This document shows positions 1-15,624 of a stretch of 20,000 nt of DNA, piece after piece. The first letter of the stretch is position 1; each line of letters begins with the position of its first letter. A program made the position numbers and the translations under genes. The notes under the pieces are model-generated. The model was not told where the DNA came from. It saw nothing but the letters and a program-made list of their open reading frames with translations, and searched no databases. Origin of the DNA: an uncultured virus (IMG/VR IMGVR_UViG_3300044912_000713) (taxonomy: Duplodnaviria; Heunggongvirae; Uroviricota; Caudoviricetes); the IMG/VR virus record IMGVR_UViG_3300044912_000713. One strand, written 5' to 3'.

Positions 1-631
1 GAAATTTAATCTTGTAGTCAGACAGCTCGTGGCACAGCTCGAAGGCATATCCCTGGTTCTTCCTCTTCGTGAAGAGCCCGATTATCACCACGTGTTTGTA
101 GTCGGGTTCGAGCCCTAGTCTCTTTCTCGCGGCCATCTTGTCCTGCTGCTTGGCATCGACCGGGTACTCTATTATTTCGAACGGCACATTGAGGTGCTTG
201 TACTTCAAGGCGTTGTAAGGGCTGACGAAAACGAACCTGTCCGGCATGTATCTCTTGCTCCCGGGATTGAAGCTGCTGTCGTGGGTGGTTTCCACAATCG
301 TGTATTCGCGCTCGGGACGGTACACCCACTGCGCCATGTCCTCCGACATGAACATCTCGGGAAACTCCTCGACGCTCACGCAGTCCGGTTTGAAGTCCTC
401 GAATATCCGCTTCAGCTCATCCGTCTTGTTCTGTCCGAGGGTCTTGAACCGGTCCGGTTCGAGAGCCCCGACTATTATGTTTCTCTGCACCACGTAGTTC
501 CATGCCAGCATCGCGTGCTCCACGACCATTACGTCAAACCTGTCCTTCAGCAGCAGCACCTTGTTCGCGGTTACCTGCGGAGCGCCTCCCGTGCTCAGGT
601 GCGGCGTAAATATCAAAAGTCTCTTTTTCAT
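1..631 (-). CDS. Glycosyltransferase family 4 (GT-B), 3' end runs off the window
   Basis: Not in the ORF track. My translation from ATG 631 begins MKKRLLIFTPHLSTGGAPQVTANK and near the edge reads GLFTKRKNQGYAFELCHEL, typical GT4 N-terminal and G-x-x-x-x-x-K-N motifs. ATGA overlap with the GT9 stop. Confidence 0.8.
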   Translation of the reverse strand, partial: MKKRLLIFTPHLSTGGAPQVTANKVLLLKDRFDVMVVEHAMLAWNYVVQRNIIVGALEPDRFKTLGQNKTDELKRIFEDFKPDCVSVEEFPEMFMSEDMAQWVYRPEREYTIVETTHDSSFNPGSKRYMPDRFVFVSPYNALKYKHLNVPFEIIEYPVDAKQQDKMAARKRLGLEPDYKHVVIIGLFTKRKNQGYAFELCHELSDYKIKF

Positions 632-1572
632 AGGTATTCTCTTATTGAGGCATAAACAGAATCAACGGGCGGATGGCACTCCATGGTTGGATAGTTCTCC
701 AGGCACCTTATGAGGGGCGCCACGCCCTGTATGTTTCCCCACTCTTTAATCCCGTGCTTGGCGTCCGACCCGCACTCCAGCGCGCAAGAACCCCTCACGT
801 AGCGGTACTTCCACGTCTGCCCTCCCTTCCTGTAGGGGGCGCGGAACTCCTGCTTAATGTTCGACCCGAGGTGGATTATCGGCGCCTCCGTCGTCCCGGC
901 CAGGTGCAGCAGTCCGCTGTCCATCGTCACGAAGCAGGCGCTCTTCTGTATTATCCACCAGCAGTCCGAGACGCTCGTCTTGTTCATCAGGTTTCTTCCA
1001 AGCGGGATGTCAAAGTTGAAGACGGGCTTCTGTACGTTGAAGAACCCAGTCTCGCTGGAGTCCTTTCCTATCGAGACCACATGGATGCCCTGCTCGTTGA
1101 GTTTCGCCGTCAGCTCCATCCATCGGGAAGCCTCCCACGTCCTTGTCGGCCACGATGACACCGGGTGAATCACCACGTAGGGCTTGTCGGGTATCATGGA
1201 TTCATCGATGGGAAATACGGGCCTGTAATGGCACTCCATCTCGTCTTTCGCGAGCATGAATCCCAGCTGTATTGCGTGAAACTGCCTTATGTCAATCATG
1301 TTGTGCTTGTACTCGATTCCCCGCTCGTTCTTCTTTCCCACGTTGTAGAACGTGTCGTGCACTATGTAGTTCGAAGAGAAGTGGTCCATGTCTACGGACG
1401 ACCTCTTGTAGCTCGCGTCCACGTACGGGTTCTCTTTGAAAATGTCCGGACGCTGGGATATGACTGTCACCCTTTTTCCGTAGTAGTCGTGCAGCTTCTT
1501 AATCGTGGGAGTGGCGCAAATCAGGTCGCCGAGCCCGTTGCACTGCTCGAGGTTTATGGCTATTGGTTTCAT
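628..1572 (-). CDS. Glycosyltransferase family 9 (heptosyltransferase-like)
   Basis: GLGDLICATP, VVIHP...TRTW and FVTMDSGLLHLAG are GT9 motifs. Start moved to ATG 1572, which gives an ATGA overlap with the sulfotransferase stop. Confidence 0.88.
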   Translation of the reverse strand: MKPIAINLEQCNGLGDLICATPTIKKLHDYYGKRVTVISQRPDIFKENPYVDASYKRSSVDMDHFSSNYIVHDTFYNVGKKNERGIEYKHNMIDIRQFHAIQLGFMLAKDEMECHYRPVFPIDESMIPDKPYVVIHPVSSWPTRTWEASRWMELTAKLNEQGIHVVSIGKDSSETGFFNVQKPVFNFDIPLGRNLMNKTSVSDCWWIIQKSACFVTMDSGLLHLAGTTEAPIIHLGSNIKQEFRAPYRKGGQTWKYRYVRGSCALECGSDAKHGIKEWGNIQGVAPLIRCLENYPTMECHPPVDSVYASIREYL

Positions 1573-2396
1573 ATAACGTATTTGAAGTGGTCGAAATACC
1601 ACTTGAACCTGTTTACTATCCACTCGCAGACGTACTGTCCGAGCACGTCCTTTGCATCGGAGGGTCTCATCTCCAGCGTGTTTCTAATAATGTGGTCGCC
1701 GAATCCCATGTGCGGGTTGTCGTCCTCGTGCGTCAGCTGCGGGATGTGGTCGAAGTTGTGCTGGAAGAACGGTATTTCAAGGTAGTTGTATATGCGTGAA
1801 ATCTCCCTGTCGGGATTGAGGCAGAAGTCCTCGTACTTAACGAAAAGTATCTTATGCTCGTCCTTCATCTGAATGACGCTCTCTATGCGCTCCAGCATGA
1901 TGCCGATGGGAACGCCGTTTGCCCACGAGTCTATGCGCTTGTTCACTATGGTGTTCTTCATCTCGGCCCAGTCAATCATGAGGTCCTTGTGCATGTTCTT
2001 CCTGAACTTCTTCTCCATGCTGCAGAAAACGTCCCTGAGGTCTCGAACCATGCAGACTATCTTCGGTTGGTATGGCAGGAACTCCTCAATCCACCTTACG
2101 TACGGCGTCCATGCCCTTCCCTTGTCGATGTAATACTTCTTGTTGGTTATGGAGTTGGCATATCCGTGAATGGCGGAGTTGCAGAATCCGGCGAACGCCT
2201 TTCGCATGGCATCCTGGTCAAGCGCGTGCTTGAACTCTTCGATTGTGGTGAAGTTGTGCCTTGCCCCGTACAGCAAGTCCATCAATCCGCTGGTCGGAGT
2301 AGCGTAGATGTCCGGATTCTGGGCCAATATGTTCTGCAGCAGGGTGCTCCCGCTCCTCGGCATGCTGGACTGGAAGAAGATTCTTTCTACTGCCAT
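1569..2396 (-). CDS. PAPS-dependent sulfotransferase
   Basis: 5'-PSB motif SMPRSGSTLL, 3'-PB motif MVRDLRDVFCS, and VKYEDF. ATG 2396 follows an A-rich leader. Confidence 0.9.
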   Translation of the reverse strand: MAVERIFFQSSMPRSGSTLLQNILAQNPDIYATPTSGLMDLLYGARHNFTTIEEFKHALDQDAMRKAFAGFCNSAIHGYANSITNKKYYIDKGRAWTPYVRWIEEFLPYQPKIVCMVRDLRDVFCSMEKKFRKNMHKDLMIDWAEMKNTIVNKRIDSWANGVPIGIMLERIESVIQMKDEHKILFVKYEDFCLNPDREISRIYNYLEIPFFQHNFDHIPQLTHEDDNPHMGFGDHIIRNTLEMRPSDAKDVLGQYVCEWIVNRFKWYFDHFKYVI

Positions 2397-2400
2397 TTTT

Positions 2401-2436
2401 TTTCGTGAATTTATGGAAATTCTTATATTCACGGAA
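2401..2436. promoter_or_regulatory. Divergent promoter region with an imperfect inverted repeat and two Bacteroidota -7-like boxes
   Basis: 53-bp AT-rich gap between divergent genes. Arms 2401-2413 and 2424-2436 match 11/13 as inverted repeats. They contain TAAATTCA (-) and TATATTCA (+), near the TAnnTTTG consensus. Confidence 0.5.
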
Positions 2437-2449
2437 GTAAATAATTGAC

Positions 2450-2839
2450 ATGAATATATCAATAGGACCGGGCGAGGCGTACGACCGCCTCACGATACTC
2501 GAGATTAAGCTGAGGCGAATCTCCGACCCCGAAAAGCTCAAGAACGTCGACCGGGAATTGACGTCCCTCTCCGCCTCCATACTCAACTATTGCGCCCGGA
2601 CCAACCAGGCGCCACCGCCCGAGCTCGTAGACTCTCTAAGATTCGTCAACGAAAGGCTCTGGAAGGTGGAGGACGAACTCAGGCAGCTGGAGAGCGAAAA
2701 GGCCTTCGGGGACCATTTCGTGAAGCTGGCGAGGCAGGTGTACTACCTCAACGACGAGAGGGCTGAGTTGAAGAAGGAGATAAACTTGAAAATGAATTCG
2801 GAATTCGTAGAAGAGAAGTCATATAAACCGTACAAATGA
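2450..2839 (+). CDS. DUF6165-family protein
   Basis: ISIGPGEAYDRLTILEIK...VNERLWKVEDELR...LARQVYYLNDERAELKKEIN...EEKSY matches the DUF6165 pattern as I recall it, a family often found near glycosyltransferases. Confidence 0.75.
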   Translation: MNISIGPGEAYDRLTILEIKLRRISDPEKLKNVDRELTSLSASILNYCARTNQAPPPELVDSLRFVNERLWKVEDELRQLESEKAFGDHFVKLARQVYYLNDERAELKKEINLKMNSEFVEEKSYKPYK

Positions 2840-3351
2840 TAAAACCGGGAGAGATAACGGTCCTGTTCGGACAGCCGCACAGCGGCAAGAGCACCCTTGC
2901 GTGGGAGCTGAAGAAGGCTTTGATTGAATCGGAGGGAATATCCTATCCCATAGTAGACGGGGACGAGATTAGGGCCATCTTCAAAAACGGCGACTACAGC
3001 CGGGAAGGTAGGATTAGGAACCTGCAGAGAATCAGCGACATAGCCGTCTACCTAGCCCAGCAGCACGAAAGGGTTATTGTGGCTGCGGTTTACCCTTACA
3101 AAGAGGCAAGGGAATACCTCGACTCGCAGATTAAAGACGTGAAATGGATTCACCTGAGCTACGATGGGGTAAGGGGAAGGGAGACCTTCCACGTCAAAGA
3201 CTTCGACCACGTGTTCTATGGTGGAAATACATATTCAATAAATACAAGCAAAAATGGAACAGACGAGTGCTGCCAGAAAATACGCCTTATTCATCGGCCG
3301 CTACCAGACGCTGCACGAAGGGCACAAGTACCTATTCAGAAAGAAGATTGA
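2836..3351 (+). CDS. cysC: Adenylyl-sulfate (APS) kinase
   Basis: P-loop GQPHSGKST plus the CysC signature DGDEIR...YSREGRIRNLQRI. ATGA-coupled to the upstream gene. Confidence 0.85.
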   Translation: MIKPGEITVLFGQPHSGKSTLAWELKKALIESEGISYPIVDGDEIRAIFKNGDYSREGRIRNLQRISDIAVYLAQQHERVIVAAVYPYKEAREYLDSQIKDVKWIHLSYDGVRGRETFHVKDFDHVFYGGNTYSINTSKNGTDECCQKIRLIHRPLPDAARRAQVPIQKED

Positions 3352-3631
3352 CGAGGGAGTGCCGGTCATGGTTGCAATCCGGGACGTGCCGACGGACGAG
3401 AAAAACCCGTATAACCCGACGCAAGTCGTGGACATGTTCTTCCACGACCCCGAAACCTCCAAATGGATATCCGAGTCGATGATGATTGTAACAGTCATCC
3501 CGGACATAGAGGGGGTGTACTACGGCAGGGACGTCGGATACAAGGTGGAGCAGCTCGCGGTTCCGCCGGAAGTGGCGTCAATCTCCGCAACTGCGATAAG
3601 GGAAGAGAAGAGAAAAAGGGGAGAGATATGA
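3254..3631 (+). CDS. HxGH nucleotidyltransferase (cytidylyltransferase-like superfamily)
   Basis: FIGRYQTLHEGH motif and C-terminal ISATAIR motif. Confidence 0.8.
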   Translation: MEQTSAARKYALFIGRYQTLHEGHKYLFRKKIDEGVPVMVAIRDVPTDEKNPYNPTQVVDMFFHDPETSKWISESMMIVTVIPDIEGVYYGRDVGYKVEQLAVPPEVASISATAIREEKRKRGEI

Positions 3632-3852
3632 CAATCGACAAGAAGAGGCACGTCGCAAAGACCATAAGCTACCGGCTCGTAAGCACGGGAATAGGCTTCG
3701 TCATGATGTATTTCGCCACCGGCAGCCTTAAGATAGGCGCCGCTTTCGGCGTTGCGGAGCTGATATACAAGCCCATTCAATACTACCTGCACGAGAGGGT
3801 CTGGTACCGATACATAAAGTACGGACTCAAGAGAGAGAAGGGTCAACGGTAG
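3628..3852 (+). CDS. DUF2061 small membrane protein
   Basis: RHVAKTISYR...YYLHERVW signature. Start set at ATG 3628 (ATGA overlap) rather than 3463. Confidence 0.82.
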   Translation: MTIDKKRHVAKTISYRLVSTGIGFVMMYFATGSLKIGAAFGVAELIYKPIQYYLHERVWYRYIKYGLKREKGQR

Positions 3853-4660
3853 ATATCCTCATGTGCGCGAGGTAGCGGGGAAGTCCCTCTTCAATCGTGT
3901 ATTTCGGGGTCCAGCCGGGCATGAACAGCTCCGGATTGGCCTTCGTGAACTGCTGGTAGTTTTCGGGAATGGAATCGGCTTCGGCGTACTCGTATCTCAA
4001 ACCGAGAATGTCCATCACCTCCTCGAAGCTCCTATCCTGGCCAGAACCCACATCGTAGTACTTTCCACGAATACCTTCGTAGTTTTCAAGCGCGTGCAAG
4101 TTTGCGTCGACGACGTCCTGGATGTAGACGAAGTCCCTGCGGGGTCCTGTCGGAAAAAGCCGGAACGGCTCGCCCCACTTGCACTTCATGTATGCCTGGC
4201 ACGCCACGGAGGCCATCTTTCCCTTGTGGTACTCGTTCTCCCCGTAGACGTTGAAGTATCTGAGCGCGACCTGCCTTCTGCCTATCGCGTACGTCTCCCC
4301 GATGTATTTTGATGCCGCATACAGCGTCTCCGGAAGTCCGGATGACCCGGTTACGGAAGCCGACGAGCTGAAGATGAAGGGTTTGTTATTCGCCTGGCAC
4401 CAGTCGGAAAGAAGCATGGTTGAAAGGACGTTCCTTGTCATAATCATGGGCACGTCGGTACACCTGGTGTCCGCAATTGCGCCGACGTGGAAGATTGCAT
4501 CCGGGTTCAGCTTTTCAACGTACTGTGTTAGCATCTCGTGCCACTTTCCCCGCTCGAAAATCCACTGCTCAATCCCGAGGCAAATCCATCCTTTGGCTTC
4601 TATCGCCCGCTGCAGGGCACCGCCCACGAAGCCCTTGTTTCCCGTTACGCAAATCCTCAT
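3827..4660 (-). CDS. hldD: ADP-L-glycero-D-manno-heptose 6-epimerase-like NAD-dependent epimerase
   Basis: VTGNKGFVG Rossmann motif, YAASK, and the HldD-typical LRYFNVYGENEYHKGKMASV and RRDFVYIQDV. ATG 4660 preferred; TTG 4684 is possible. Confidence 0.85.
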   Translation of the reverse strand: MRICVTGNKGFVGGALQRAIEAKGWICLGIEQWIFERGKWHEMLTQYVEKLNPDAIFHVGAIADTRCTDVPMIMTRNVLSTMLLSDWCQANNKPFIFSSSASVTGSSGLPETLYAASKYIGETYAIGRRQVALRYFNVYGENEYHKGKMASVACQAYMKCKWGEPFRLFPTGPRRDFVYIQDVVDANLHALENYEGIRGKYYDVGSGQDRSFEEVMDILGLRYEYAEADSIPENYQQFTKANPELFMPGWTPKYTIEEGLPRYLAHMRISTVDPSLS

Positions 4661-4671
4661 GTCTTTTAAGG

Positions 4672-4679
4672 CAAATTTA
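4672..4679 (-). promoter_or_regulatory. Bacteroidota-type -7 promoter box TAAATTTG
   Basis: Exact TAnnTTTG match in the short gap, 11 nt upstream of the hldD ATG. Confidence 0.4.
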
Positions 4680-4680
4680 G

Positions 4681-5451
4681 TCAAACCACGCTAACCCCGC
4701 GCTGTGATACTACGGTTCCAGCCAAGTCGTTTGCGTAGTCTATGGCCGCGTAGATTTTTCCAGACCTCATGTAGCTGAAGGCAAGTGCCGCCGTGAAGGT
4801 GTCCCCTGCCCCGCTCACGTCTATGGTGTTAATCGGCTTGCGCGAAGGGTACTTGGTTCCGCCGTGCATTGCCCCGTCCGAGCCAAGCGTCACGACGAAC
4901 TTGGTGGAAAACTTCCTCTTGTGGGTCTGCAGCACGTTCTCTGCGTACTCTTTGCTGTTGAGCTTTATGAAGTCAACGTAATCGAAGATGGAGAGCTCCA
5001 TTTTTTTCTTCGTATCCATGAAGACGGGACATTTTTCCTTCTTCAACCTCGATATCCTCTTCAAATCCTCTATCTGGATGAACCCCTTGTCGTAATCGGA
5101 CACGATTATGCAGTCGGCCTTAGAAATCTTGTCCTTGGCCTCCGGGGTGAATGAAATCCGCTCGAATTCCTCCTCTTCGTCCACGCGAAGGAAGTAGTGA
5201 TTGGTCTTTGAGTCGACGTACCTTGTCTTGACCGAACCCGATGCGGAGAGGATGGCGTCCACGGAATGTGCGTTTCCGTTCTGGAAGGCGATTGAGGCGA
5301 GGTTGTTGAAAACATTCGCAGCCATCCCTTTGTTCTCCCTCCTATAGGAAGGTGTGAAAACGGGTACGGGCGCTTCCGGGGAAAGCCTGTTGGAGTCCCC
5401 GTATACGAACACGTCCGTGCACTGCTCGCCTATGACTAGAAAATTGGCCAT
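4681..5451 (-). CDS. rfaE1: Heptose-7-phosphate kinase (HldA/RfaE domain I, PfkB family)
   Basis: RLSPEAPVPV, GMAANV, KTRY, VSDYDKG and DVSGAGDTF are RfaE kinase motifs. Confidence 0.88.
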   Translation of the reverse strand: MANFLVIGEQCTDVFVYGDSNRLSPEAPVPVFTPSYRRENKGMAANVFNNLASIAFQNGNAHSVDAILSASGSVKTRYVDSKTNHYFLRVDEEEEFERISFTPEAKDKISKADCIIVSDYDKGFIQIEDLKRISRLKKEKCPVFMDTKKKMELSIFDYVDFIKLNSKEYAENVLQTHKRKFSTKFVVTLGSDGAMHGGTKYPSRKPINTIDVSGAGDTFTAALAFSYMRSGKIYAAIDYANDLAGTVVSQRGVSVV

Positions 5452-5816
5452 CAGTTTCCCTTTTTTATCCTGTAGGAGTCGTGGTCGAAGTGCTCCGTTG
5501 ACACTTCGATTATCTCCCCGTCGGTCAAGGCGTGAAGCTGGTGGGGCATACCGGTCGGTATTTCGACCACGTCGCCCGGAACAAGGCTCCTCGTATGCTC
5601 GACTCCCCGCTCCGTGTCAATCCAGTTGAAGATGAACTCCCCCACCCTGACAAACCAGGTCTCCTGCTTCACCATGTGGTAGTGCATCGAGAATCTGCAT
5701 CCGGCGCGAAACTCGAGAATCTTTCCGCAGTACTTATGACAGTTGTGAATGACCAGCTCGCGCCCCCATCCTTTGGGTATCTCGCAGCATTTAGTCAATT
5801 TTGGCTCTTTTCCCAT
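5451..5816 (-). CDS. Cupin, sugar-phosphate isomerase-like
   Basis: KGWGRE...YCGKIL...SMHYHMVKQETW...GMPHQL...EVST cupin metal-binding pattern. Confidence 0.8.
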   Translation of the reverse strand: MGKEPKLTKCCEIPKGWGRELVIHNCHKYCGKILEFRAGCRFSMHYHMVKQETWFVRVGEFIFNWIDTERGVEHTRSLVPGDVVEIPTGMPHQLHALTDGEIIEVSTEHFDHDSYRIKKGN

Positions 5817-6207
5817 TCTTTATCTTTTTTATGGTTTCCGAAGTCGACAATCCCCCTATGCGCTGAAAGAAAGTCACGTTGGCGCAGTGCTCCGCGCCTA
5901 TTATCTTCTTGCCCATGTAGTCGCTGCCGATAACCATCTGCCATGGGCTGAGCTGCCTGATGTAGTCGGACAGCTGGTGGTCCGTATCGAATACGTACAC
6001 TTTTTCAACATACACCAGAGATTCAAGAAGAGACTTCCTGAACTGCTGGTCGTTGACCGGCCTGTCAGAACCCTTGGCCTGGCGAATCCTCGCGTCCGAG
6101 TCGATTCCGACGAATACCATGTCTCCGAGCGTGGAGGCGAACTCAAGAAGCTTGAGGTGGCCCATGTGCAGGACGTCAAAGCATCCGTTTACCCATACTT
6201 TTCTCAT
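5791..6207 (-). CDS. rfaE2: Heptose-1-phosphate adenylyltransferase (HldC/RfaE domain II)
   Basis: VWVNGCFDVLHMGH, VGIDSD..I...KG.DRPVN, GSDY and STS motifs. Clustered with the kinase and epimerase. Confidence 0.85.
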   Translation of the reverse strand: MRKVWVNGCFDVLHMGHLKLLEFASTLGDMVFVGIDSDARIRQAKGSDRPVNDQQFRKSLLESLVYVEKVYVFDTDHQLSDYIRQLSPWQMVIGSDYMGKKIIGAEHCANVTFFQRIGGLSTSETIKKIKNGKRAKID

Positions 6208-6334
6208 AGGAGTATTGTAAAATTTTCACTTAATTGTCCTAGCAACGAATATAAATAATTCCACAAGATATGCAATCTTTTGAAAAATTGTGCACGTAAT
6301 CAAAAAAAACCAGTATTTTCATGTGCAATATATT
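6208..6334. promoter_or_regulatory. AT-rich divergent promoter region
   Basis: 127-bp AT-rich gap between divergent runs, with TATATTCG (-, 6246-6253) and TATTTTCA (+, 6314-6321). Confidence 0.5.
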
Positions 6335-6613
6335 ATGACAGAGATGAGCATCGATACGAGAACAGTCGAGCGCTTGGACGCCATGGAGCGCACGCTCGAA
6401 AGCCTGGTTCACAAGTTGAACAAGCTATATGTGGCGGTTGCAGGGGACGAGACCCTCGACCAGGAAGGATACCTGCAGCGGCTGAAGAAGCTGGAGAAGC
6501 AGGTTCACGAGCATCAAGTCCTAAAATACAAACTCATGGGCGCTTTCGTCGGAGGTGGTGCGATTTGGACCATACTCTGGGAGGCGTTCAAAAAATTAGT
6601 ACTGAAAAGCTAA
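6335..6613 (+). CDS. Small coiled-coil protein with C-terminal TM helix (holin-like or virion membrane protein)
   Basis: Heptad-like segments, then LMGAFVGGGAIWTILW and a basic tail. ATG 6335 or 6344. TAATG coupling to the next gene. Confidence 0.65.
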   Translation: MTEMSIDTRTVERLDAMERTLESLVHKLNKLYVAVAGDETLDQEGYLQRLKKLEKQVHEHQVLKYKLMGAFVGGGAIWTILWEAFKKLVLKS

Positions 6614-7041
6614 TGCCAGTGTTACCATCAGCAACTTCTACGGCTGCAACCGCGGCCACCAGCGCCTCCAAGGCGAGCAGCATCGCTGGAAAGGCAGACG
6701 TCATAGGGGCGGCCGGACAAGTGGGGGCTCTCGCAATCAGCACCATCGGACAGATTAGCGACGCCAACAAGCGCCGCAAGTTCGAGGAAAACTTCTCGAG
6801 GCTGACTTTGGAGCAGCAGAAGGGGCTGGAGATGCTGCTGATAGAATCGAAGTCGAACACGGAGAGGCTGTCAGTGCTAGCGCAGTATCTGACGCAGCTC
6901 AACGCGCAGCGGATATCGAACCTGGCCTCGTACTACGGGGAGAAAGAGAAGAGCGGTAGAAACAAAACATTGATAATTCTCGGTGGAGTCGTGGTGGCCG
7001 GCATACTGGTGACGTATCTGCTCCTGAGAAACAAGAACTGA
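6613..7041 (+). CDS. Tail-anchored membrane protein (paralog A)
   Basis: ATG overlaps the upstream TAA. Ala-rich N-terminus, helical core, TM segment LIILGGVVVAGILVTYLLL, then RNKN. Confidence 0.75.
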   Translation: MPVLPSATSTAATAATSASKASSIAGKADVIGAAGQVGALAISTIGQISDANKRRKFEENFSRLTLEQQKGLEMLLIESKSNTERLSVLAQYLTQLNAQRISNLASYYGEKEKSGRNKTLIILGGVVVAGILVTYLLLRNKN

Positions 7042-7042
7042 C

Positions 7043-7390
7043 ATGCCCATACCAATAATCATAGCGGCGATTGGGGCTGCGGCGAGCGTCGCATCGGCCG
7101 CTTCTGGCGTTGACAAGGCCTCCAAGGAGAGGTATTTCAGCCAGCAGTTGGCCTTCTTGAACCAAGATGAGCAGAACCAGCTAGCAAAAAAATTGGAGGG
7201 GGCGAAGAGCAACGACGAGAGGGTCAGGATACTCACATCCGCGGTCTCATCCGTGGAGGAGGCGAGGCTGAAAGGTCTCACCACTGTCCAGCTCGAAAGG
7301 GAAAAGACCAAGAAGACCCTGCTCGTGGTGGGAATCGCCGGAGCGGTCGTTCTTCTTTTGACTGTTTTAATAGTATCAAAAAGAAATTGA
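7043..7390 (+). CDS. Tail-anchored membrane protein (paralog B)
   Basis: Hydrophobic Ala-rich N-terminus, KSNxER core shared with the previous gene, C-terminal TM, then KRN. Confidence 0.75.
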   Translation: MPIPIIIAAIGAAASVASAASGVDKASKERYFSQQLAFLNQDEQNQLAKKLEGAKSNDERVRILTSAVSSVEEARLKGLTTVQLEREKTKKTLLVVGIAGAVVLLLTVLIVSKRN

Positions 7391-7391
7391 A

Positions 7392-7775
7392 ATGCCAGAA
7401 GTAAACGGTCTAGACACGCTGCAAGACAAGGCGCTGACCCCCGACAAGAAAGACCAGCTGGTAAACCAGATACAGTCGGAGATTGACTCGCTGAATCGCA
7501 TACTTAGGGAGCAGGGTGCTCCCGCCGCGGTTTTGGAGGCAGCCAAGAGGAATAAGAACTCGCTGCAGGGACTTGTCAACAAGATTCTCGCCAAGAAGGG
7601 GGTGATAACGCCGACAGAGACGAACGACGCCCTTGAGGCGATGGCGAAGGCCAAGCGGGAGCGTCTCGAGAGCGACTTCTCGACGACTGTTCGCAGATTT
7701 GCAATTGTGGCTGGACTTCTGATTGGCGGCTATCTGGCCTGGAGGTACGTGAAAAAATTAAACCAGAACGGATGA
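7392..7775 (+). CDS. Tail-anchored helical membrane protein
   Basis: Helical core, TM segment FAIVAGLLIGGYLAW, basic tail. 1-nt gap to the upstream gene. Confidence 0.75.
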   Translation: MPEVNGLDTLQDKALTPDKKDQLVNQIQSEIDSLNRILREQGAPAAVLEAAKRNKNSLQGLVNKILAKKGVITPTETNDALEAMAKAKRERLESDFSTTVRRFAIVAGLLIGGYLAWRYVKKLNQNG

Positions 7776-8095
7776 ATAAGAACTTAAAGACGGCGATATT
7801 GGTCTTCGGGGGCGGAATCGTCCTCTACTGGGCTTTCACCAAAATCAGGCCTTTCGTAAAGACAAAGAAATTGAAGAAGGAAATCGAATCGGGTTCCGCC
7901 GGAAGCGCGGAGAAGGTTAAAAAGGCGGGCGCGGCCCTGAGGGCTTACAACACCGCCAAGAGGGAAGGGCAGCCGAAGGAGTTTCTCGACGAACTGAACC
8001 TCGAGCTCATGAAGGAGTACGGGGTTAAAATCATGACGGACAAGTCTACCGGAAAGACATTCGCGGCCGATTCCGATGGCAACAAAATAGTGTAA
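7772..8095 (+). CDS. N-terminally anchored membrane protein
   Basis: TM segment TAILVFGGGIVLYWAF followed by a Lys-rich soluble part. ATGA overlap. Confidence 0.72.
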   Translation: MNKNLKTAILVFGGGIVLYWAFTKIRPFVKTKKLKKEIESGSAGSAEKVKKAGAALRAYNTAKREGQPKEFLDELNLELMKEYGVKIMTDKSTGKTFAADSDGNKIV

Positions 8096-8096
8096 G

Positions 8097-8618
8097 ATGG
8101 CAGTACCTCCAGTGATAACGACAATACCACCTGCAATTTCGGTGACCGCACCGGCGGGAAGCGTGCTGGGTACGGGGATAACGTACCAGCAGTTTTTGCA
8201 GAGCCTCGGCACGTACAACTACGGTGTCGAATACTTCTACATGCAGGCCTCTACCTATCCGGAGATTGGACAGCCGGTATATTACAACAGGTTCCTGGCG
8301 AACGGGGACTCCGTGACGGCTTTCTTGCCTTTTCATGTCGACCCTTACCAGTCCCAACCGGCCATCTTCTACGAGACCGAGAGGGACCAGATAATCTTCA
8401 CCGGACTGACCGCCCTGCAGTTCAAGCTCCAGCCGACCAGCACCGTGTACTTCAAGTTCTTCGCCACGATTCTCTACATAGGCAACGATTCCAACCATAG
8501 CTGGGACGCCTACATGGGAACCGACGCGTTCAAGCAATTGGAGCAGGAGGAGGGAATCACGTTCTTCGACGACTACTGCAATTACCTAATAGACGAAAGC
8601 AACGACAATGTCAATTAA
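8097..8618 (+). CDS. Hypothetical beta-rich protein, possibly virion structural
   Basis: Aromatic-rich alternating beta-strand pattern and acidic tail. Coupled between the membrane genes and the Thr-rich gene. Confidence 0.6.
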   Translation: MAVPPVITTIPPAISVTAPAGSVLGTGITYQQFLQSLGTYNYGVEYFYMQASTYPEIGQPVYYNRFLANGDSVTAFLPFHVDPYQSQPAIFYETERDQIIFTGLTALQFKLQPTSTVYFKFFATILYIGNDSNHSWDAYMGTDAFKQLEQEEGITFFDDYCNYLIDESNDNVN

Positions 8619-10077
8619 ACGGGAGCTCATACAGTTCACGCTGGTCAATTCGACCGACTGCGAGTACACCATTCCGCTCATGCAGCTGAATGTATATTCT
8701 ATCAACGCAACGACCAAGTACAGCTGGAACATAACCTCCCAGAACCTTTCCTGCGGGACGGGAAGTATCGTGATAAATTCAATCACATACAACATAACAT
8801 TTGCCCCGAACCTGGCCGGACTCCTGGCCGCGTTGAACGCGCTCGGATTCGGATTCTTCTGCAGCGAGACGATTGGACCCAACACATTCATATACACCGT
8901 CGACGACACGAACATATACGGAAACCTTGACCTGTGCGCGACCGGAACGACCACGACGACAACGTCAACAACATCAACGACATCAACGACTTCCTCAACG
9001 ACTTCGACGACTAGCTCGACCACGTCGACCACCTCATCTACGACATCTACGACTTCAACGACCTCTTCAACGACATCTACGACTTCTACTACAAGTTCGA
9101 CCACGTCGACCACTTCATCGACAACCACCACGACATCGACTACCACCACGACGACAACCCTTTCAGGCGTAAACCTTAACCTCCTCGAGCAGGCGGTAAC
9201 AGGCGGTAGCAATATAAACGCAGAATACAGCACAGACCTCGGTGTCACATGGACACCGTTCCTAAACAATCCGGTAACTTCGGGCAATCCAAATTACAAT
9301 TCGTATAATTTTCTAAACCTGCTACCCGGAACCACATTGTACGTCGCGTTGCTTGACACATCTAACAACGACATACAATACGGTTCAGGATTTTTCAGCT
9401 CCGACTATGTCTCACTGTGCGGTAAGTCAACGCCATTCATCACGACTATATTAACCGGAGTAAACAATATCTACTTGAACGTCGCGGTGTCCGGTGGAAA
9501 TCTGGTTAATTGCCCGGTTACCACTACCACGACTACAACGACCACATCAACTACGACAACCACAACAACTTTGCCGGCCTGCGTCGAATCGGTATCTTTC
9601 GACGTTACCAGCCCTGGTGACGTATCGGTGACAAACTGCTGTGGAATCGCTTCACTCAACACGTACGCGATAGGAAGCTACACCCTAACTGCGGACTGTT
9701 ATCAGCTTAACGGCGTTGTTGCGATAGACGCGGTAATAACCAACGTCGTATACTCTCTTCCTGCGTGCAACTGTCCTCCGACGACCACAACCACGTCTAC
9801 GACCACCACGACTACGACTGTGGGTCAGCAGATAAACATATTCTTGGACACGACTTCGATTAACGTGTGCTCGGGTAATACCTTCAACAACGTATACATA
9901 ACCCAGAGCTCGACTTTCGGACCTGGAACGATTGTCTACTATGACGCCGGTTGCACGCTACCAATGAACAACACGAACACCTACTTCTACGTTGTTAAGA
10001 ATCCTAGCGCGTCGCAGACCGTGTACGACTGGGATGGAACGACGGGGACGATAGGAAACTCGGTCGGAAGCTGCTAG
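8608..10077 (+). CDS. Mucin-like multidomain protein with three Thr/Ser linkers (putative virion spike/fiber)
   Basis: 489 aa with four beta-rich domains separated by pure T/S tracts of 71, 17 and 13 aa. 15 Cys, only 4 Lys and 1 Arg, no His. Confidence 0.75.
   Translation: MSIKRELIQFTLVNSTDCEYTIPLMQLNVYSINATTKYSWNITSQNLSCGTGSIVINSITYNITFAPNLAGLLAALNALGFGFFCSETIGPNTFIYTVDDTNIYGNLDLCATGTTTTTTSTTSTTSTTSSTTSTTSSTTSTTSSTTSTTSTTSSTTSTTSTTSSTTSTTSSTTTTTSTTTTTTTLSGVNLNLLEQAVTGGSNINAEYSTDLGVTWTPFLNNPVTSGNPNYNSYNFLNLLPGTTLYVALLDTSNNDIQYGSGFFSSDYVSLCGKSTPFITTILTGVNNIYLNVAVSGGNLVNCPVTTTTTTTTTSTTTTTTTLPACVESVSFDVTSPGDVSVTNCCGIASLNTYAIGSYTLTADCYQLNGVVAIDAVITNVVYSLPACNCPPTTTTTSTTTTTTTVGQQINIFLDTTSINVCSGNTFNNVYITQSSTFGPGTIVYYDAGCTLPMNNTNTYFYVVKNPSASQTVYDWDGTTGTIGNSVGSC
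8947..9159 (+). repeat. Thr/Ser coding tract 1 (71 codons, TTS/TTSS periodicity)
   Basis: Only ACN/TCN/AGY codons, with varied third positions. Confidence 0.95.
9520..9570 (+). repeat. Thr/Ser coding tract 2 (T9-S-T7)
   Basis: 17 consecutive Thr/Ser codons. Confidence 0.95.
9781..9819 (+). repeat. Thr/Ser coding tract 3 (T5-S-T7)
   Basis: 13 consecutive Thr/Ser codons. Confidence 0.95.
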
Positions 10078-10110: not shown

Positions 10111-11088
10111 ATGAGAACGGAAGAAAAGCGGCTGACGCTGATTTGCGTGCAGCCTTCAATAATCTACTACGCATGGCAGGTGGAGGTCATGCTCACGAAC
10201 TTCGAGCGGCTCAACCTTCACGATAAATACAACATCCACTGCCTGTTCGCCTACAACAAGAGCGAACCGGACTGGAGGGAGAAGGTGGCGCTCGTCACCA
10301 AGGTGATGTTCCGATTCCAGGGAGTGGCCGAATTTTACTTCTACCCGGACACGAGGCAGTATCCGGTAAGCTACATCTCATCGATTAGACCCAACGCCCT
10401 CAAGCAGCACTTCGCCAGATTCCCCGAGCTCGGGAAGCAGGCGGTTTTCTACCACGACTGCGACATTATCTTCTCCAAGTACCCCGACTTCCTCGATGTC
10501 ATGGTCGAAAGCGGGGAATGGTTCGTTTCGGACACGATATCCTACATCGGATACGAATACATCGTATCGAAGGGACACGACGTGCTCGACCTCATGTGCC
10601 GCATAGTGGGATGCCACCCGTTCCTGATTAGGGACAGGCAAAGCCAGTCTGGAGGCGCGCAGTACCTGATGAGGGGCGTCGACTTCCAGTTTTTCGACAA
10701 GATGGAGAGGGATTGCGAGCGCATGTACCGAGAGGTGACCGACCTAAACAACAAGAAGAAGCAGCTCGACCCCAAGCACCACGAGCTACAAATCTGGTGC
10801 ACCGACATGTGGTGCCTCCTCTGGGGGGCGTGGATGAGGGGATACGACACGCACGTCTCGCCGGCCCTTGAGTTCTGCTGGGCCACGGACCCGCTGGAGA
10901 AGTTCGAGAAGAACTACATTTTCCACAACGCCGGCGTTACGAAGGCCGGAGAGGGATTCTTCTACAAGGGACTCTACACAAACTCACTGCCATACCAGGA
11001 TGAGAGGTATCCGATAAACCCGCAGTCCGCGAGCTCCAAATACCACGAGCTTCTTATGGAGGTCGGAAAGACAAGCTGCCTAATATAA
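10111..11088 (+). CDS. GT-A glycosyltransferase resembling plant peptide O-glycosyltransferases (SERGT1/GT96, HPAT/GT95)
   Basis: Ordered motifs YYAWQVEVM, YISSIRP, VFYHDCDIIF (DxD), GGAQY and WCTDMW parallel YxxWQ, YxxxN(K/R)P, DxD, GG and WxxEMY of the plant enzymes. Confidence 0.6.
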   Translation: MRTEEKRLTLICVQPSIIYYAWQVEVMLTNFERLNLHDKYNIHCLFAYNKSEPDWREKVALVTKVMFRFQGVAEFYFYPDTRQYPVSYISSIRPNALKQHFARFPELGKQAVFYHDCDIIFSKYPDFLDVMVESGEWFVSDTISYIGYEYIVSKGHDVLDLMCRIVGCHPFLIRDRQSQSGGAQYLMRGVDFQFFDKMERDCERMYREVTDLNNKKKQLDPKHHELQIWCTDMWCLLWGAWMRGYDTHVSPALEFCWATDPLEKFEKNYIFHNAGVTKAGEGFFYKGLYTNSLPYQDERYPINPQSASSKYHELLMEVGKTSCLI

Positions 11089-11093
11089 AACCC

Positions 11094-11324
11094 ATGATAG
11101 ACAAGATTAAAGAGATAGTCCAGTCGTACGCGACTATGGTAAACCCCACGGACGAGCAGAAGCGCGCCGCCGAGATAAGGCTCCTGAGCTGCATGAAGTG
11201 CGAGGAGTGGAAGCAGAACGCTGTCGGAATCAGCTACTGCGGAAAGTGCGGATGCGCGACAAAGGGAAAGATATTCTCCCCGAAGGGGGTGAACGCATGC
11301 CCGCTGGGCAAGTGGATAATATAA
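11094..11324 (+). CDS. Small Cys-rich metal-binding protein (DUF6171-like)
   Basis: RLLSCMKC...CGKCGC...K...CPLGKW pattern, common in phage ORFs. Confidence 0.7.
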   Translation: MIDKIKEIVQSYATMVNPTDEQKRAAEIRLLSCMKCEEWKQNAVGISYCGKCGCATKGKIFSPKGVNACPLGKWII

Positions 11325-11334
11325 AATTCTAAAC

Positions 11335-11850
11335 ATGCCATACAGTTACGGAGAGTTCAAGACCCAGGTCAGGGACCACATAGTGGACAACTTCCCCAGG
11401 AGCACTAAAATACTGGACGTCGGCGCCGGAAGCGGCACCTACGGGAACCTTCTGAAGCCCCACTACGACGTGGTGGACGCCATCGAGGTTTTCCCAGAGT
11501 ACGTGAAAATGTTCGACCTGCGCTCGAGGTACAACTACGTGCACATTGGAAACATCATGCAGTTCGGGTTCGAAGGATACGACTACCTCGTGCTGGGGGA
11601 CGTGCTCGAGCACCTGACCGTCTCTGACGCGACCTCGCTGATTGAGAGGATTGACGCGCTGGGAAAGAAGGCGCTGGTGGCCGTGCCGTACATGTTCGAG
11701 CAGGGGATTGAATTCGGAAACATCTACGAGACCCACCACCAGCCGGACCTCACCGTGGCGAGGATGTACCAGCGATACCACACCCTTAGGCTCATATACG
11801 GAGACCTCGGCTACGGTTACTACATCAACTACATACCGCCGATAAAATGA
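11335..11850 (+). CDS. Class I SAM-dependent methyltransferase
   Basis: ILDVGAGSG, DAIE and YDYLVLGDVLEHL motifs. Confidence 0.88.
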   Translation: MPYSYGEFKTQVRDHIVDNFPRSTKILDVGAGSGTYGNLLKPHYDVVDAIEVFPEYVKMFDLRSRYNYVHIGNIMQFGFEGYDYLVLGDVLEHLTVSDATSLIERIDALGKKALVAVPYMFEQGIEFGNIYETHHQPDLTVARMYQRYHTLRLIYGDLGYGYYINYIPPIK

Positions 11851-12548
11851 ACCTGAAAGTCGTAGTAAACAACAGGAACAGGCTCACGACGACCAGAAAC
11901 ATGGTCGAGCACCTGCTGCGGCTGAACCCGAGGCAGGAAATCGTCATTCTCGACAACGCCTCGACGTATCCGCCCCTCATGGAGTGGTACCAATCCGTAA
12001 ACGAGAATCCGGAGAGGTGGCCCACCCTGCAAATCAGGCTCCTGCCGAACCTCGGACACCTGGCGTTCTGGAACTCAAACATGCAGGGCGAGGTCGGCGA
12101 GTACTTCGTGTACAGCGACTCAGACATAGAGCTCGACCCGGAGATGCCCCATAATTGGGCGTTGCAGATGATTAACTTGATTGAGAAGTACGAAATCAAT
12201 AAGGTCGGGCTTTCCATACGGATTGACGACATACCGGACCACTATCCCCATAAATCCCAGGTTTTGAGGGACCAGGCCGGATGCTGGAAGGAAGAGGCGG
12301 AGCCGAACGTGTTCTGGGGCGATACGGACACCACATTCTGCCTAATCAGGAACGTGGGGGGAAATCCCTACAGAAGCCTCAGGGTGGCCAGAAAAGGCTT
12401 CAAATCGCGCCACACACCCTTCTACCTAGACTTCGAAGACCTGTCTCCGGAGGAGCTTTACGTCCTGGACAACCACGACGGGCGGTTCCACACCCAGTAC
12501 ACGAGCGCCCACGTGCGGGAAAAGAAAAAGACGAATCCCCATGAATAG
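11847..12548 (+). CDS. GT2-like glycosyltransferase
   Basis: VVVNNRNR, IVILDNAST, NLGH and YSDSDI (DxD) motifs. Confidence 0.78.
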   Translation: MNLKVVVNNRNRLTTTRNMVEHLLRLNPRQEIVILDNASTYPPLMEWYQSVNENPERWPTLQIRLLPNLGHLAFWNSNMQGEVGEYFVYSDSDIELDPEMPHNWALQMINLIEKYEINKVGLSIRIDDIPDHYPHKSQVLRDQAGCWKEEAEPNVFWGDTDTTFCLIRNVGGNPYRSLRVARKGFKSRHTPFYLDFEDLSPEELYVLDNHDGRFHTQYTSAHVREKKKTNPHE

Positions 12549-13413
12549 ACTTAAAAACAATGACAATCCAAGGGTCACGGCGATACTGTGCACCTACGGT
12601 CGCTTCTCCTGCGTGGAGAGGGCGGTTAACTGCTTTCTCGCGCAAAGCCATGGAAACAAAGAACTCGTCATTTACAATACGGACGATGAAAACCCCTATC
12701 TCGACCGAGGCGGTCGTTTGGAGGCCCACGGCATACTAATAGTCAACAACGGGAGGGACAGGGTAACGGGACTTCCGTACACGAACGTCGGAGCCGTACG
12801 AAGGGACGCGCTGGTGTTCGCCGGCGGGGAATACGTGGTAACGTGGGACGACGACGACATATACCTGCCCCACCTGATGGAGCAGGCGTTGGACAGGATT
12901 TGGCACACGGGACTTCCGTCATTCAAACCGGCCATGTCGTTCTTCTACAGCGGGGACTACCTGAGGCTGGTCCAGAACACCATGGAGGCATCCGTCGTAG
13001 CGAAAAGGTCCAAGGTAGAGGAGTATGGATACAACCTCGAGACGGGAAGGGAGGGTCTGGCGTGGTACACGAGGATGAGGGACAATCGCGAGCTCGACGA
13101 GAACGACGCCCACTGCGTACCCAGCTACTGCTTCAACTGGAACGATGGTGACACCATGAAGGCTCCCCACAAGCAGTCCGGCGACATAGACAATCCCGAG
13201 AATTTCGAAATACACAAGACCCGCTCCACCGACCGGGTGGACGGCAGAGACATCGAAATATACGGGGTAGAAAAAATGGCCCGGGTTTACGAGCCATACT
13301 TCAGGTTCCTATTCGACCATTCGAGCGAATTCCCGGACGACCTGTTCGACAAATACGTCAGCAGGAGCTGGGACTACGTGGAATCGCTGGTGGGTTTTTC
13401 CAGACGCTCATAG
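12541..13413 (+). CDS. Glycosyltransferase family 2
   Basis: VTAILCTYGR...AVNCFLAQ...KELVIYN...VGAVR...YVVTWDDDDIYLP. Confidence 0.85.
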   Translation: MNRLKNNDNPRVTAILCTYGRFSCVERAVNCFLAQSHGNKELVIYNTDDENPYLDRGGRLEAHGILIVNNGRDRVTGLPYTNVGAVRRDALVFAGGEYVVTWDDDDIYLPHLMEQALDRIWHTGLPSFKPAMSFFYSGDYLRLVQNTMEASVVAKRSKVEEYGYNLETGREGLAWYTRMRDNRELDENDAHCVPSYCFNWNDGDTMKAPHKQSGDIDNPENFEIHKTRSTDRVDGRDIEIYGVEKMARVYEPYFRFLFDHSSEFPDDLFDKYVSRSWDYVESLVGFSRRS

Positions 13414-13995
13414 GGTGTCCGAGGTTTTCCCCCTTCTACCCAGAAACGCCTGCGAGTCCTCGCAGTGTATCAGCTCGAACCCGTTTTCCAAGAGGTAGGG
13501 AATCGAGAGCTTCCCCTTTCCATCGAATTGGTCGTTGAAGACGTCGTCTATGAGCACGAAGCACGTGTCGGCGAGCATGTCCCACGCGGCCTTCAGCTCG
13601 TTTACGGAGTGCTCCTGGCATCGGCGGACGTTCTCCGCGTCTCCAACATAGTCGTAGCTGTCGAGGAATAGCAGGTGAATCGGCTCTTTGAACGCCGAAA
13701 GGTAGGCTACGGAGTCTTGTTTGGTGTATTCAACGTAGTCTGACGGCGGCACGACGATTTTCGCCTTGTTCAGGTGGTTCTCGTCAATGTCGACGACGTA
13801 CACCCTCGAATCCGTCTCACGGGCGTGGTACTCCCAGTTTAGGGTGCTCCACCCGTCCCCGAACCGGCACTCGTCCGTGTTGTTCCTTATGCACCCGGTC
13901 TCTACTATGTTTATGGGATGGTCGAAAGTTGCGGCGAGCGTCAACAGCACCCGCGTGAAGGACGTGTTTCGTCCTGTCTCTGGCTTTGTGTTCAT
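13408..13995 (-). CDS. Class I SAM-dependent methyltransferase (Methyltransf_24-like)
   Basis: IVETG...GWST, VVDID, DSVAYL, LLFLDS and VLIDD motifs. Confidence 0.8.
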   Translation of the reverse strand: MNTKPETGRNTSFTRVLLTLAATFDHPINIVETGCIRNNTDECRFGDGWSTLNWEYHARETDSRVYVVDIDENHLNKAKIVVPPSDYVEYTKQDSVAYLSAFKEPIHLLFLDSYDYVGDAENVRRCQEHSVNELKAAWDMLADTCFVLIDDVFNDQFDGKGKLSIPYLLENGFELIHCEDSQAFLGRRGKTSDTL

Positions 13996-14006
13996 TTCTT
14001 TAATTT

Positions 14007-14927
14007 TTATTCGGGAATGTCGGGAAGCGAGTTGAACGTCTTGATGGCGGAGGGCTGCTTCACGGACGCAATCTGCTTGGCCTCCACAATCTTAATCTGG
14101 TTGTCCTCGTCCAGCGACAGGTAAGCCCCCCCTTCTATTCGCGTCTCCAAATCGACCGCCTGCTTCCCGTAGTAGTCCTTCGGGAGGAGCTTCGCCAGCT
14201 GAATCAGCGCGGTCTTTCTCGCCATCCAGAAGTTCGGGTCCTTTCGGTCGTTGAAGTAGAGCTCGTTGTTGTACTTGCTGAGCTGCTGAATCTTGACTAT
14301 CTCCCCCTTCGAGAGGACGAAGAACTGCTGCCTTCCGCTTTTCAGCGTCGCGACCGCGTAGACGAACTTGAACGTCTCGGAGTCCCTCTTCACCGAATAG
14401 TCCGCGACGTGCACGATGTTGGGCGTCAGTCCGTACGTCACCTTGAACTCCTCCCCCTCGAACACGACGTACGTGTCGATGTGGTCCACCTCCCCGGAGC
14501 GCAGTATTATCGACACGAGGCCCCTGTATCCTATCTGCGGGGTTACGGTCATCTTTCCGTCAATCCTGCGGGGAATCAGGAAGAACTCCTGCTGGTTGGA
14601 CGGCATGAGCCCTATCTCCGCCCCGGCCAGTATCGACGCGAACATCGACGCCGGGTTCTCGATGAAGGCCTGCTGCAGCTTCTCGTTCTTCTTAATCTCG
14701 GTCAGCACGACCTGCACGAACTTCGATACGGGTATGTGGTGCGTGGCCAGAAGGTCGGGCAGCACGTTTTCCTTGTAGGACTCCATGTACTTCTGGAATC
14801 GCTGGATTGGCGTCAGCGGTCTGCTCGCCTCCGCCGGTAGCGACTCCACGGGGGTTGAAATGTCTTTTGCCGGTTGCAGCTCCTGCTGCGGCTGGGTCTT
14901 TCTGACCCGCTTTCTTGGTGTTGTCAT
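14007..14927 (-). CDS. recT: RecT-family ssDNA annealing protein
   Basis: AEIGLMP...FLIP...QIGYRGL...VFEGEEF...VYAVA...MARKT...LAKLLP. ATG 14927 directly follows the AACCATAAAA leader. Confidence 0.9.
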   Translation of the reverse strand: MTTPRKRVRKTQPQQELQPAKDISTPVESLPAEASRPLTPIQRFQKYMESYKENVLPDLLATHHIPVSKFVQVVLTEIKKNEKLQQAFIENPASMFASILAGAEIGLMPSNQQEFFLIPRRIDGKMTVTPQIGYRGLVSIILRSGEVDHIDTYVVFEGEEFKVTYGLTPNIVHVADYSVKRDSETFKFVYAVATLKSGRQQFFVLSKGEIVKIQQLSKYNNELYFNDRKDPNFWMARKTALIQLAKLLPKDYYGKQAVDLETRIEGGAYLSLDEDNQIKIVEAKQIASVKQPSAIKTFNSLPDIPE

Positions 14928-14938
14928 TTTTATGGTTT

Positions 14939-15070
14939 TTATTTGTTTGTCCTGTATAGCCTGGTGTATCCCTGCCTGACCTCGCAGAAGTACCGCACGT
15001 ACCTCACGTTGTACGGAAGGTACACGACGTGTCCGCACAGCTCGCAGCGGTATCTGTACCTCGCGCTCAT
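14939..15070 (-). CDS. 43-aa Tyr/Arg-rich CxxC peptide, below the ORF track cutoff
   Basis: MSARYRYRCELCGHVVYLPYNVRYVRYFCEVRQGYTRLYRTNK*. ATGA overlap with the upstream stop, and fills the gap up to the recT leader. Confidence 0.6.
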   Translation of the reverse strand: MSARYRYRCELCGHVVYLPYNVRYVRYFCEVRQGYTRLYRTNK

Positions 15071-15309
15071 AGGTTGTTGAGGATGTGTCTCCTCTCGCTT
15101 TCGGTTAGCCGGTCAGTGATGTCTATCCACAGCCCCTCCTTCACCTCAATCCTCACGGACGCGATGTCGCGCGAGAGCTCCTCGTCCTCGTCGAACGTGT
15201 GGAAGCCGTGGCACTCCTCCACCCGCTGCGGGTTCTTCTTTATGGTGTAGGCAACGTCTACCAGCGTCTCCATCGACGCGATTTCGTTTATCGAATATGT
15301 GTCAGCCAT
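15067..15309 (-). CDS. Hypothetical protein (80 aa)
   Basis: ATG 15309 lies 5 nt after the upstream stop. The longer track ORF overlaps the neighbour out of frame. Confidence 0.65.
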   Translation of the reverse strand: MADTYSINEIASMETLVDVAYTIKKNPQRVEECHGFHTFDEDEELSRDIASVRIEVKEGLWIDITDRLTESERRHILNNL

Positions 15310-15314
15310 GGTTT

Positions 15315-15620: not shown

Positions 15621-15624
15621 ATAG

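Follow-up and report, generated by a model that had tools for sequence, protein, structure and literature searches.

A putative remote viral relative of plant GT95 and GT96 glycosyltransferases, coupled to threonine tracts and predicted to glycosylate virion proteins

Results

Gene content of the window

The window, by which we mean the whole 20,000-nucleotide stretch of DNA from an uncultured virus, contains an ATG-to-TAA reading frame that, judged by its sequence, is a real gene and encodes a putative glycosyltransferase of 325 residues. The protein encoded directly upstream, our candidate acceptor, has no Pfam or PHROG family above cut-off. We reject a microsatellite origin of its three threonine tracts, as the mixed threonine codons indicate that they are maintained at the protein level. 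These and the other features considered here are listed in Table 1.

Table 1 Features of the window, with the conserved motifs of the enzyme.
Feature	Position	Strand	Remark
GT9, sulfotransferase, APS kinase, two nucleotidyltransferases, epimerase, PfkB kinase, cupin	628..6207	.	Sugar-nucleotide and sulfate block
173-aa beta-rich protein	8097..8618	+	Paralogous to the candidate capsid protein (231 aa) of syntenic viruses
489-aa poly-Thr protein, 121 Thr and 61 Ser	8608..10077	+	Candidate acceptor; gene directly upstream of the enzyme
Thr/Ser tract 1, 71 residues (48 T, 23 S)	8947..9159	+	Mixed codons
Thr/Ser tract 2, 17 residues (16 T)	9520..9570	+	
Thr/Ser tract 3, 13 residues (12 T)	9781..9819	+	
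Putative GT-A glycosyltransferase, 325 aa, phrog_4417 family	10111..11088	+	Probable remote GT95/GT96 relative, from sequence and model
YYAWQ, aa 19-23	10165..10179	+	Counterpart of the HPAT/SGT1 WQ motif
YISSIRP, aa 88-94	10372..10392	+	Counterpart of YxxxNRP (HPAT) or YxxxNKP (SGT1); plant Asn replaced by Ile
DCD, aa 116-118	10456..10464	+	DxD motif after a beta strand, within YHDCDIIF (aa 114-121)
GGAQY, aa 181-185	10651..10665	+	From conservation and profile alignment
WCTDMW, aa 229-234	10795..10812	+	Counterpart of plant WxxEMY; Glu replaced by Asp
H272 to FYK (aa 284-286)	10924..10968	+	Counterpart of plant His and FxK
76-aa Cys-rich protein, phrog_13558	11094..11324	+	Comes after the enzyme in close relatives; homologous genes in 14 of 169 loci
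Methyltransferase and two GT2 genes	11335..13413	+	Candidates for glycan extension or decoration
Methyltransf_24 protein	13408..13995	-	Candidate for glycan methylation
RecT and PD-(D/E)XK nuclease-like gene	14007-16425	-	Recombination module conserved in the syntenic group

The first third of the window holds a near-complete ADP-heptose-like block (PfkB kinase, nucleotidyltransferase, epimerase and GT9), with a sulfotransferase and an APS kinase. On the other side of the enzyme, the 76-residue Cys-rich protein is probably the same as a DUF6171-like piece that is fused to three members of the enzyme family (P0121, P0130 and P0149).

A conserved family with a GT-A fold

The window enzyme is matched by the phrog_4417 profile at E 2.5e-58 over positions 3-291 of 293, and is a full-length member of that family. 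PHROGs lists it under 'unknown function' and some GenBank records name it 'prophage pi2 protein 34'; no function is given for it in PHROGs, Pfam or NCBIfam, and the window enzyme itself finds no match among Pfam, NCBIfam and PDB sequences. The sequence-only reading of this locus had taken it for a rare viral member of a plant-type family, an idea not supported by the breadth of the family, which spans phages, prophages and Bacteroidota: 2243 of 2427 candidates were accepted as relatives, the profile search yielded 917 representatives (clustered at 50% identity), and tblastn places the enzyme in 77 of 50,697 phage records.

The five motif stretches on which that reading was built are all found in the ORF, in the order given and with verified residue positions. 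Near-invariant among 141 diverse relatives are W22 (98%), Q23 (96%), Y88 (100%), D116 (99%) and D118 (100%), as well as Y145 (100%), G182 (100%), W229 (97%), D232 (89%), M233 (99%), H272 (99%) and K286 (100%). Presumably the DCD motif binds the metal and the nucleotide-sugar, as in GT-A enzymes generally, with H272 as a putative third metal ligand.

The AlphaFold model of the enzyme has a pLDDT of 95.8, and its comparison with solved structures by Foldseek and by VIA-align leads both times to GT-A enzymes, the best being glycogenin (Z 15.0, rmsd 3.7, 231 residues aligned), LgtC (14.6) and the Skp1 galactosyltransferase (14.5). The glycosyltransferase fold is thus settled at the level of the model, and catalysis is predicted. 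Retaining GT-A enzymes of the GT8, GT24 and GT6 families (glycogenin, LgtC, Gat1, UGGT, WbbM) are the nearest solved structures, with Z 13-15. They nonetheless differ from the window enzyme, with TM about 0.4-0.5 and a profile match confined to the DxD strand: the HH-align comparison with GT8 gives E 0.015 over only 18 columns, for a thin GT8 profile of 6 sequences, and the Pfam scan shows no PF01501 hit in the window protein. Among 86 longer relatives scanned, 27 carry a second glycosyltransferase domain at E<=0.01, of GT2, GT6, GT7-like, GT25, GT29, GT32 or GT61 type.

Relation to plant GT95 and GT96

HPAT1-3 are the hydroxyproline beta-arabinosyltransferases of family GT95 and SGT1, or SERGT1, is the peptidyl serine alpha-galactosyltransferase of family GT96, with PF23452 as the Pfam family; they transfer Araf to hydroxyproline, or Gal to serine beside hydroxyproline. 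We gathered plant and algal sequences, at least 133 stretches, by a metagenome scan with a short motif. Nine of the ten plant or algal ORFs tested match PF23452 at 140-438 bits (cut-off 23.9 bits), and a two-domain ORF with two PF23452 stretches (L352) was identified as SGT1 by homologue search.

In HH-align, 50 sequences of the viral family and 25 HPAT-type domains align over 262 columns (P 90.7%, E 1.3e-6), with WQ, YxxxxRP, DxD, YI, WxxD/EM, H and FxK in register. The match to the SGT1 profile (E 1.4e-5) covers the first 110 columns. A deeper viral profile gives 4.3e-5 with the HPAT-like, 6.2e-5 with the SGT1-like and 2.7e-6 with both sets, over 234-258 columns (234 for SGT1), and SGT1 escapes detection when the alignment is restricted to close relatives (E 0.045). 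The profile comparison supports the plant link proposed from the motifs, as five other families, GT8, GT6, GT2, GT7 and GT32, reach only E 0.013-0.33 over 18-89 columns, with control profiles that are thinner than the test profiles (Neff 1.6-4.0 versus 3.3-5.0). One reversed and ten block-shuffled profiles give E 0.014-0.14.

The models tell a similar story. Among viral structures, a plant HPAT model (pLDDT 95.3) is matched best by A0A6J5SW30 (TM 0.71, against 0.54 for the next), which is also the best viral match of the window model (TM 0.88, 38% identity). Its PDB neighbours are the same GT8-like set as those of the window model, so the GT8-like best matches do not refute the homology; no solved HPAT or SGT1 structure is among the PDB matches listed for either model. 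Nor do the results go against the sequence-only reading by its own measure, a best match to a non-peptide glycosyltransferase or to another fold with WQ and WxxEM unaligned: the GT8-like matches are shared with the plant HPAT model.

One may still ask whether the likeness is generic to GT-A folds, the family being a diverged GT8-like branch with no special plant tie. The PF23452 cut-off is reached neither by the window protein nor by 106 aligned members or 24 viral records, HH probabilities lie at 65-91% and not above 95, the control profiles are the thinner ones, and the accessible part of one source describes the HPATs themselves as GT8-related (PMC4908140). Yet generic similarity would hardly place seven motifs in order over 234-262 columns where other families and shuffled profiles stay at the values given above, nor does it fit with the viral match shared by the HPAT and window models or with the Atlas neighbours at 0.96 that carry PF23452 in 10% and 40% of their members. 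We hold this explanation to be unlikely.

Two further scans concern the wider distribution. PF23452 is also blank in 5 selected genomes and two samples of 401 bacterial genomes, but control genomes are blank too, so that these scans do not show absence. Scanning viral contigs with a plant-type motif gave 7 hits, none of them in a long ORF or matching the family.

The window enzyme and HPAT/SGT1 thus have in common a GT-A fold, the nearest solved structures and a motif series in register, and would act alike, on side-chain hydroxyls in peptide tracts of low complexity. In its DxD the window enzyme is closer to SGT1 (DAD) than to HPAT (EPD). On the other hand, it stays below the Pfam cut-off, shares 13-15% identity with GT95/GT96, too little to root a joint tree of viral and plant sequences, shows the Asn to Ile and Glu to Asp changes, and consists of a single 325-residue domain, compared with two tandem catalytic-type domains in SGT1. 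Plant arabinosyltransferases are type II membrane-anchored proteins of the ER and Golgi, according to the available text of PMC8012813; in the window enzyme the first GT-A strand begins at residue 8, which leaves no room for an N-terminal membrane anchor. Its likely acceptor is threonine, as opposed to the hydroxyproline that plant enzymes need according to PMC4908140, and no prolyl hydroxylase family occurs among the 25 window ORFs scanned. Of the plant-type assignment, a remote and specific homology stands and membership does not: sequence comparison indicates that the phrog_4417 enzyme is a remote relative of GT95/GT96.

The Atlas holds viral clusters of 274-294 residues with PF23452 in 10-40% of members, along with DUF7164 clusters, at a score of 0.96. 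They are likely intermediates between the phrog_4417 family and the plant enzymes.

Coupling of the enzyme with threonine tracts in viruses

In viruses, the presence of the enzyme is coupled to threonine tracts. Among the best 80 of 588 IMG/VR loci, many of them near-copies, 75 have a tract, which in 71 lies within 1.5 kb upstream on the same strand; in the other 5 the enzyme is present with no tract nearby. No Thr tract is seen in four viral loci (L022, L023, L033 and L077) that have the enzyme and extend 10 kb upstream of it.

The same arrangement is met in cultured phages, where the enzyme gene lies inside head-tail operons. In seven of the nine examined, the gene directly upstream has Thr runs or Thr-rich repeats: the major tail protein of phiFL1A, gp8 of iLp84, gp18 of phiCTP1, the major structural protein of 1706, the major tail protein of PMBT8, and the corresponding genes of MA9V-3 and SAC12B; in three of the seven, the annotation reads major tail or major structural protein. 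In the remaining two, bIL285 and VPE25, a major tail-type protein encoded a few genes downstream ends in a Thr run. A virus-encoded glycosyltransferase linked to structural genes is therefore observed in cultured phages, and the structural assignment in the window is a prediction. In VPE25, an Enterococcus phage, a Thr-rich frame without annotation overlaps the end of a capsid-like gene in another frame, just before the enzyme (L087:4770-4900); it is possibly a frameshift extension that adds a tag.

As a control, relatives of four virion proteins were collected regardless of the enzyme, for a total of 169 loci. The tail, counted as a run of at least 5 Thr, and the enzyme are both present in 58 loci and both absent in 111, with no discordant locus; seven capsid tails are too short for a stricter 12-residue test. 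The phiFL1A tail protein set has 27 loci, 12 with both and 15 with neither, and its tree requires four changes; in all 15 relatives lacking the tail the enzyme family is missing from the whole record, six of these records being at least 90% complete. Loci with both and with neither number 13 and 56 for the bIL285 tail protein (11 of 80 dropped), 31 and 27 for the iLp84 capsid (15 of 73 dropped, one further locus being already in the first set) and 2 and 13 for the 1706 tail protein (16 of 31 dropped), where loci were dropped for short flanks or for lack of a match. Independent pairs on well-supported branches number 3 + 1 + 2 + 1, about 7 in all from the 169 loci; no single tree is significant, and the pooled 7 of 7 corresponds to p about 0.016 if the four sets are independent.

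The converse relation is weak: only 7 of 80 poly-Thr viral loci have the enzyme in their flanks, hence the tracts do not require it. Tracts and enzyme could also move as one cassette for another reason, against which the coupled tail is not on the adjacent gene in relatives of bIL285 and iLp84.

A rival explanation is that the enzyme is an accessory glycosyltransferase for host surface glycans, LPS or phage DNA, which merely rides in a cassette with Thr-rich linkers. The ADP-heptose-like block and the GT9 and GT2 genes of the window would suit such a role, as would the loci devoid of a tract, and phage glycosyltransferases that act on DNA and on host serotype are reported in the accessible part of PMC12619734. 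This explanation is quite improbable in our view, given that none of the 169 loci is discordant, including those with tails on capsid or tail genes that do not adjoin the enzyme, and given the position of the enzyme inside head-tail operons of cultured phages. Moreover, the sugar-nucleotide block is only partly shared, its epimerase, PfkB kinase and cupin being missing from the flanks of the 12 syntenic relatives of the window.

The phiEf11 major tail protein runs at 28-30 kDa versus 21.5 predicted, as given in the available portion of PMC5221750. We discarded this gel shift as support; alone it proves nothing, because the first 24 kb of phiEf11 contains neither enzyme nor tract.

Cellular copies

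The best 80 of 138 genome loci fall into two patterns. In Bacillota, 10 of 11 loci repeat the viral arrangement of enzyme and tract. In Bacteroidota, a tract is found in only 7 of 59 loci, 52 having the enzyme with no tract nearby, and a peptidase-transporter motif is close by in 24 of 59. The Bacteroidota loci that we inspected contain pinensin-type or TIGR04149-like precursors, lanthionine and radical SAM enzymes, C39 transporters and HlyD; a long Thr run is present in the L288 precursor, and that of L266 ends in a Thr-rich stretch. The Bacteroidota copies count against a strict coupling to tracts, yet seem to point to peptide acceptors.

In Sphingobacterium detergens, a lanthipeptide cluster (L288:253-12939) places a pinensin-type precursor with a long Thr run beside a fused member of the family, and two Chitinophaga loci (L256 and L266) are radical SAM peptide clusters with Thr-rich precursors. 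The products of these three are candidate glyco-RiPPs.

A possibly tailless virus group

The proposed prokaryotic-virus origin of the window fits with its RecT gene, with the 12 of 169 searched loci that are syntenic with it, and with the peptidoglycan hydrolases that two fully annotated syntenic records encode along with many small membrane-type proteins. The PF03237 terminase is absent from four of four syntenic records (75-84 kb, 66-90% complete) and present in a non-syntenic control record; likewise, neither terminase nor portal is found among 60 selected ORFs scanned in PHROGs. The syntenic records share a conserved P-loop ATPase with Walker A, Walker B and an RHxG-hhhh-Q stretch, a motif like the A32 signature. 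The ATPase has no PF04665 hit and no match among 50,697 phage records. Its gene adjoins that of a 231-residue beta-rich protein conserved in the group, a candidate capsid protein with no database match, to which the 173-residue product in the window is similar (phmmer E 6e-8). PRD1/PM2-like tailless viruses have an A32/FtsK-type packaging ATPase and a jelly-roll capsid protein, to which the P-loop ATPase and the 231-residue protein would be putative counterparts.

This 173-residue product is predicted to pair, strand to strand, with residues 1-113 of the poly-Thr protein, at an ipSAE of 0.72 compared with 0.00 for the best control. The runs agree in at least 83% of contacts, with a partner pLDDT of at least 76, and the mark used is reached by 116 of 157 solved pairs and by 2 of 215 mismatched pairs. 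Some relatives carry a comparable N-terminal piece on the paralogue itself (a weak match, E about 7e-4); the two proteins may accordingly be the halves of a split domain, and such pairs pass this test easily. A locus search with the N-terminus of the poly-Thr protein returned no locus, and relatives are present inside enzyme-bearing loci. We somewhat favour the view that the virus is tailless and the poly-Thr protein a fibre anchored to the capsid; its structural status would follow from the assignment of that capsid candidate.

The first ~50 residues of the poly-Thr protein resemble an N-terminal extension carried elsewhere by homologues of the upstream gene (8097-8946 in the window; L002:6847-7515), and a piece of the domain may have moved across the boundary between 8097-8618 and 8608-10077. 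The window region 6290-8618 and the records G001, G002, G918 and G919 (L465-L486) outline a group with an A32-like ATPase, judged by its motif, and the 231-residue capsid candidate, possibly undescribed tailless bacterial viruses of ~84 kb.

Discussion

We propose, as the probable though predicted activity, that the enzyme primes O-glycans on the Thr tracts of virion proteins. It would be a soluble, metal-dependent GT-A enzyme made during infection, moving the first sugar from a nucleotide-sugar to threonine, perhaps also serine, hydroxyls within poly-Thr tracts that the virus's own structural proteins carry; in the window the target would be the product of the adjoining upstream gene. Threonine as acceptor and the virion as its location are, for the window's virus, drawn from the gene context, which the sequence-only reading had not used and which supports the peptide acceptor it proposed. 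The result would be mucin-like glycosylated stalks on the particle, with glycans that may be extended or decorated by the GT2, GT9, methyl- and sulfotransferases encoded nearby. A retaining mechanism is suggested by the GT8/GT6/GT24-like neighbours. The donor may be a host housekeeping nucleotide-sugar such as UDP-hexose or UDP-HexNAc, because the annotated Bacillota phage regions have no annotated sugar genes beside the enzyme. Least certain is the purpose, which could be to stiffen and protect exposed linkers, or to mask the particle surface.

Instead of priming, the enzyme might extend or cap a host-primed glycan on the Thr tracts, or transfer a non-sugar group from a nucleotide donor. Among its best solved matches, most (LgtC, WbbM, UGGT, LARGE, GT6) do act on sugars, and the window has several other glycosyltransferases. 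We nevertheless find it rather unlikely: both the profile and the reciprocal fold comparison place the enzyme nearest to the peptide-priming GT95/GT96, and the same pairing of enzyme and tract recurs across dissimilar hosts such as Lactococcus, Clostridium and Chryseobacterium, which makes one shared host priming enzyme improbable.

For the priming enzyme that we prefer, the closest parallels are most likely SGT1/HPAT in chemistry and mycobacteriophage virion glycosylation in role. The latter was reportedly described by Freeman et al. in 2023. According to citations in PMC12619734 and PMC10877033, the glycosyltransferases there are phage-encoded, and the glycans sit on capsid and tail tube subunits, at the C-termini. 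In the literature searched, virion glycosylation of bacterial viruses is cited as shown only for mycobacteriophages. The role proposed for the window enzyme from its gene context is similar. The enzyme itself is different as far as compared at the tblastn level, none of the 77 phage records that carry it being named Mycobacterium phage; and it would be one enzyme with a simple poly-Thr tag, present in phages of Bacillota and Bacteroidota as well as in uncultured viruses. Among the openly accessible papers listed, none assigns the phrog_4417 family or links it to poly-Thr tails.

A wider scenario, possible though doubtful as a whole, would make phrog_4417 a prokaryotic sister family of GT95/GT96 and a portable writer of poly-Thr tags. 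It would O-glycosylate virion proteins of Bacillota and Bacteroidota tailed phages, and of ~84-kb tailless membrane-type viruses such as that of the window, with a tagged fibre fixed to the capsid by strand complementation. Its chromosomal copies would glycosylate Bacteroidota RiPP peptides, and the plant O-glycosylation of extensins and CLE peptides would descend from a prokaryotic or viral peptide-glycosylating lineage.

If true, the proposed function would extend virion glycosylation to phages that can be cultured (dairy, enterococcal and staphylococcal) as well as to abundant uncultured viruses, in a one-enzyme, one-tag design that is testable in naturally differing phage pairs. GT95 and GT96, for which the PDB matches listed include no solved structure, would gain small soluble relatives for studies of structure and mechanism. 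Bacterial O-glycoengineering would be well served by a soluble enzyme able to prime poly-Thr, and the family may offer a handle on the origin of plant peptide O-glycosyltransferases.
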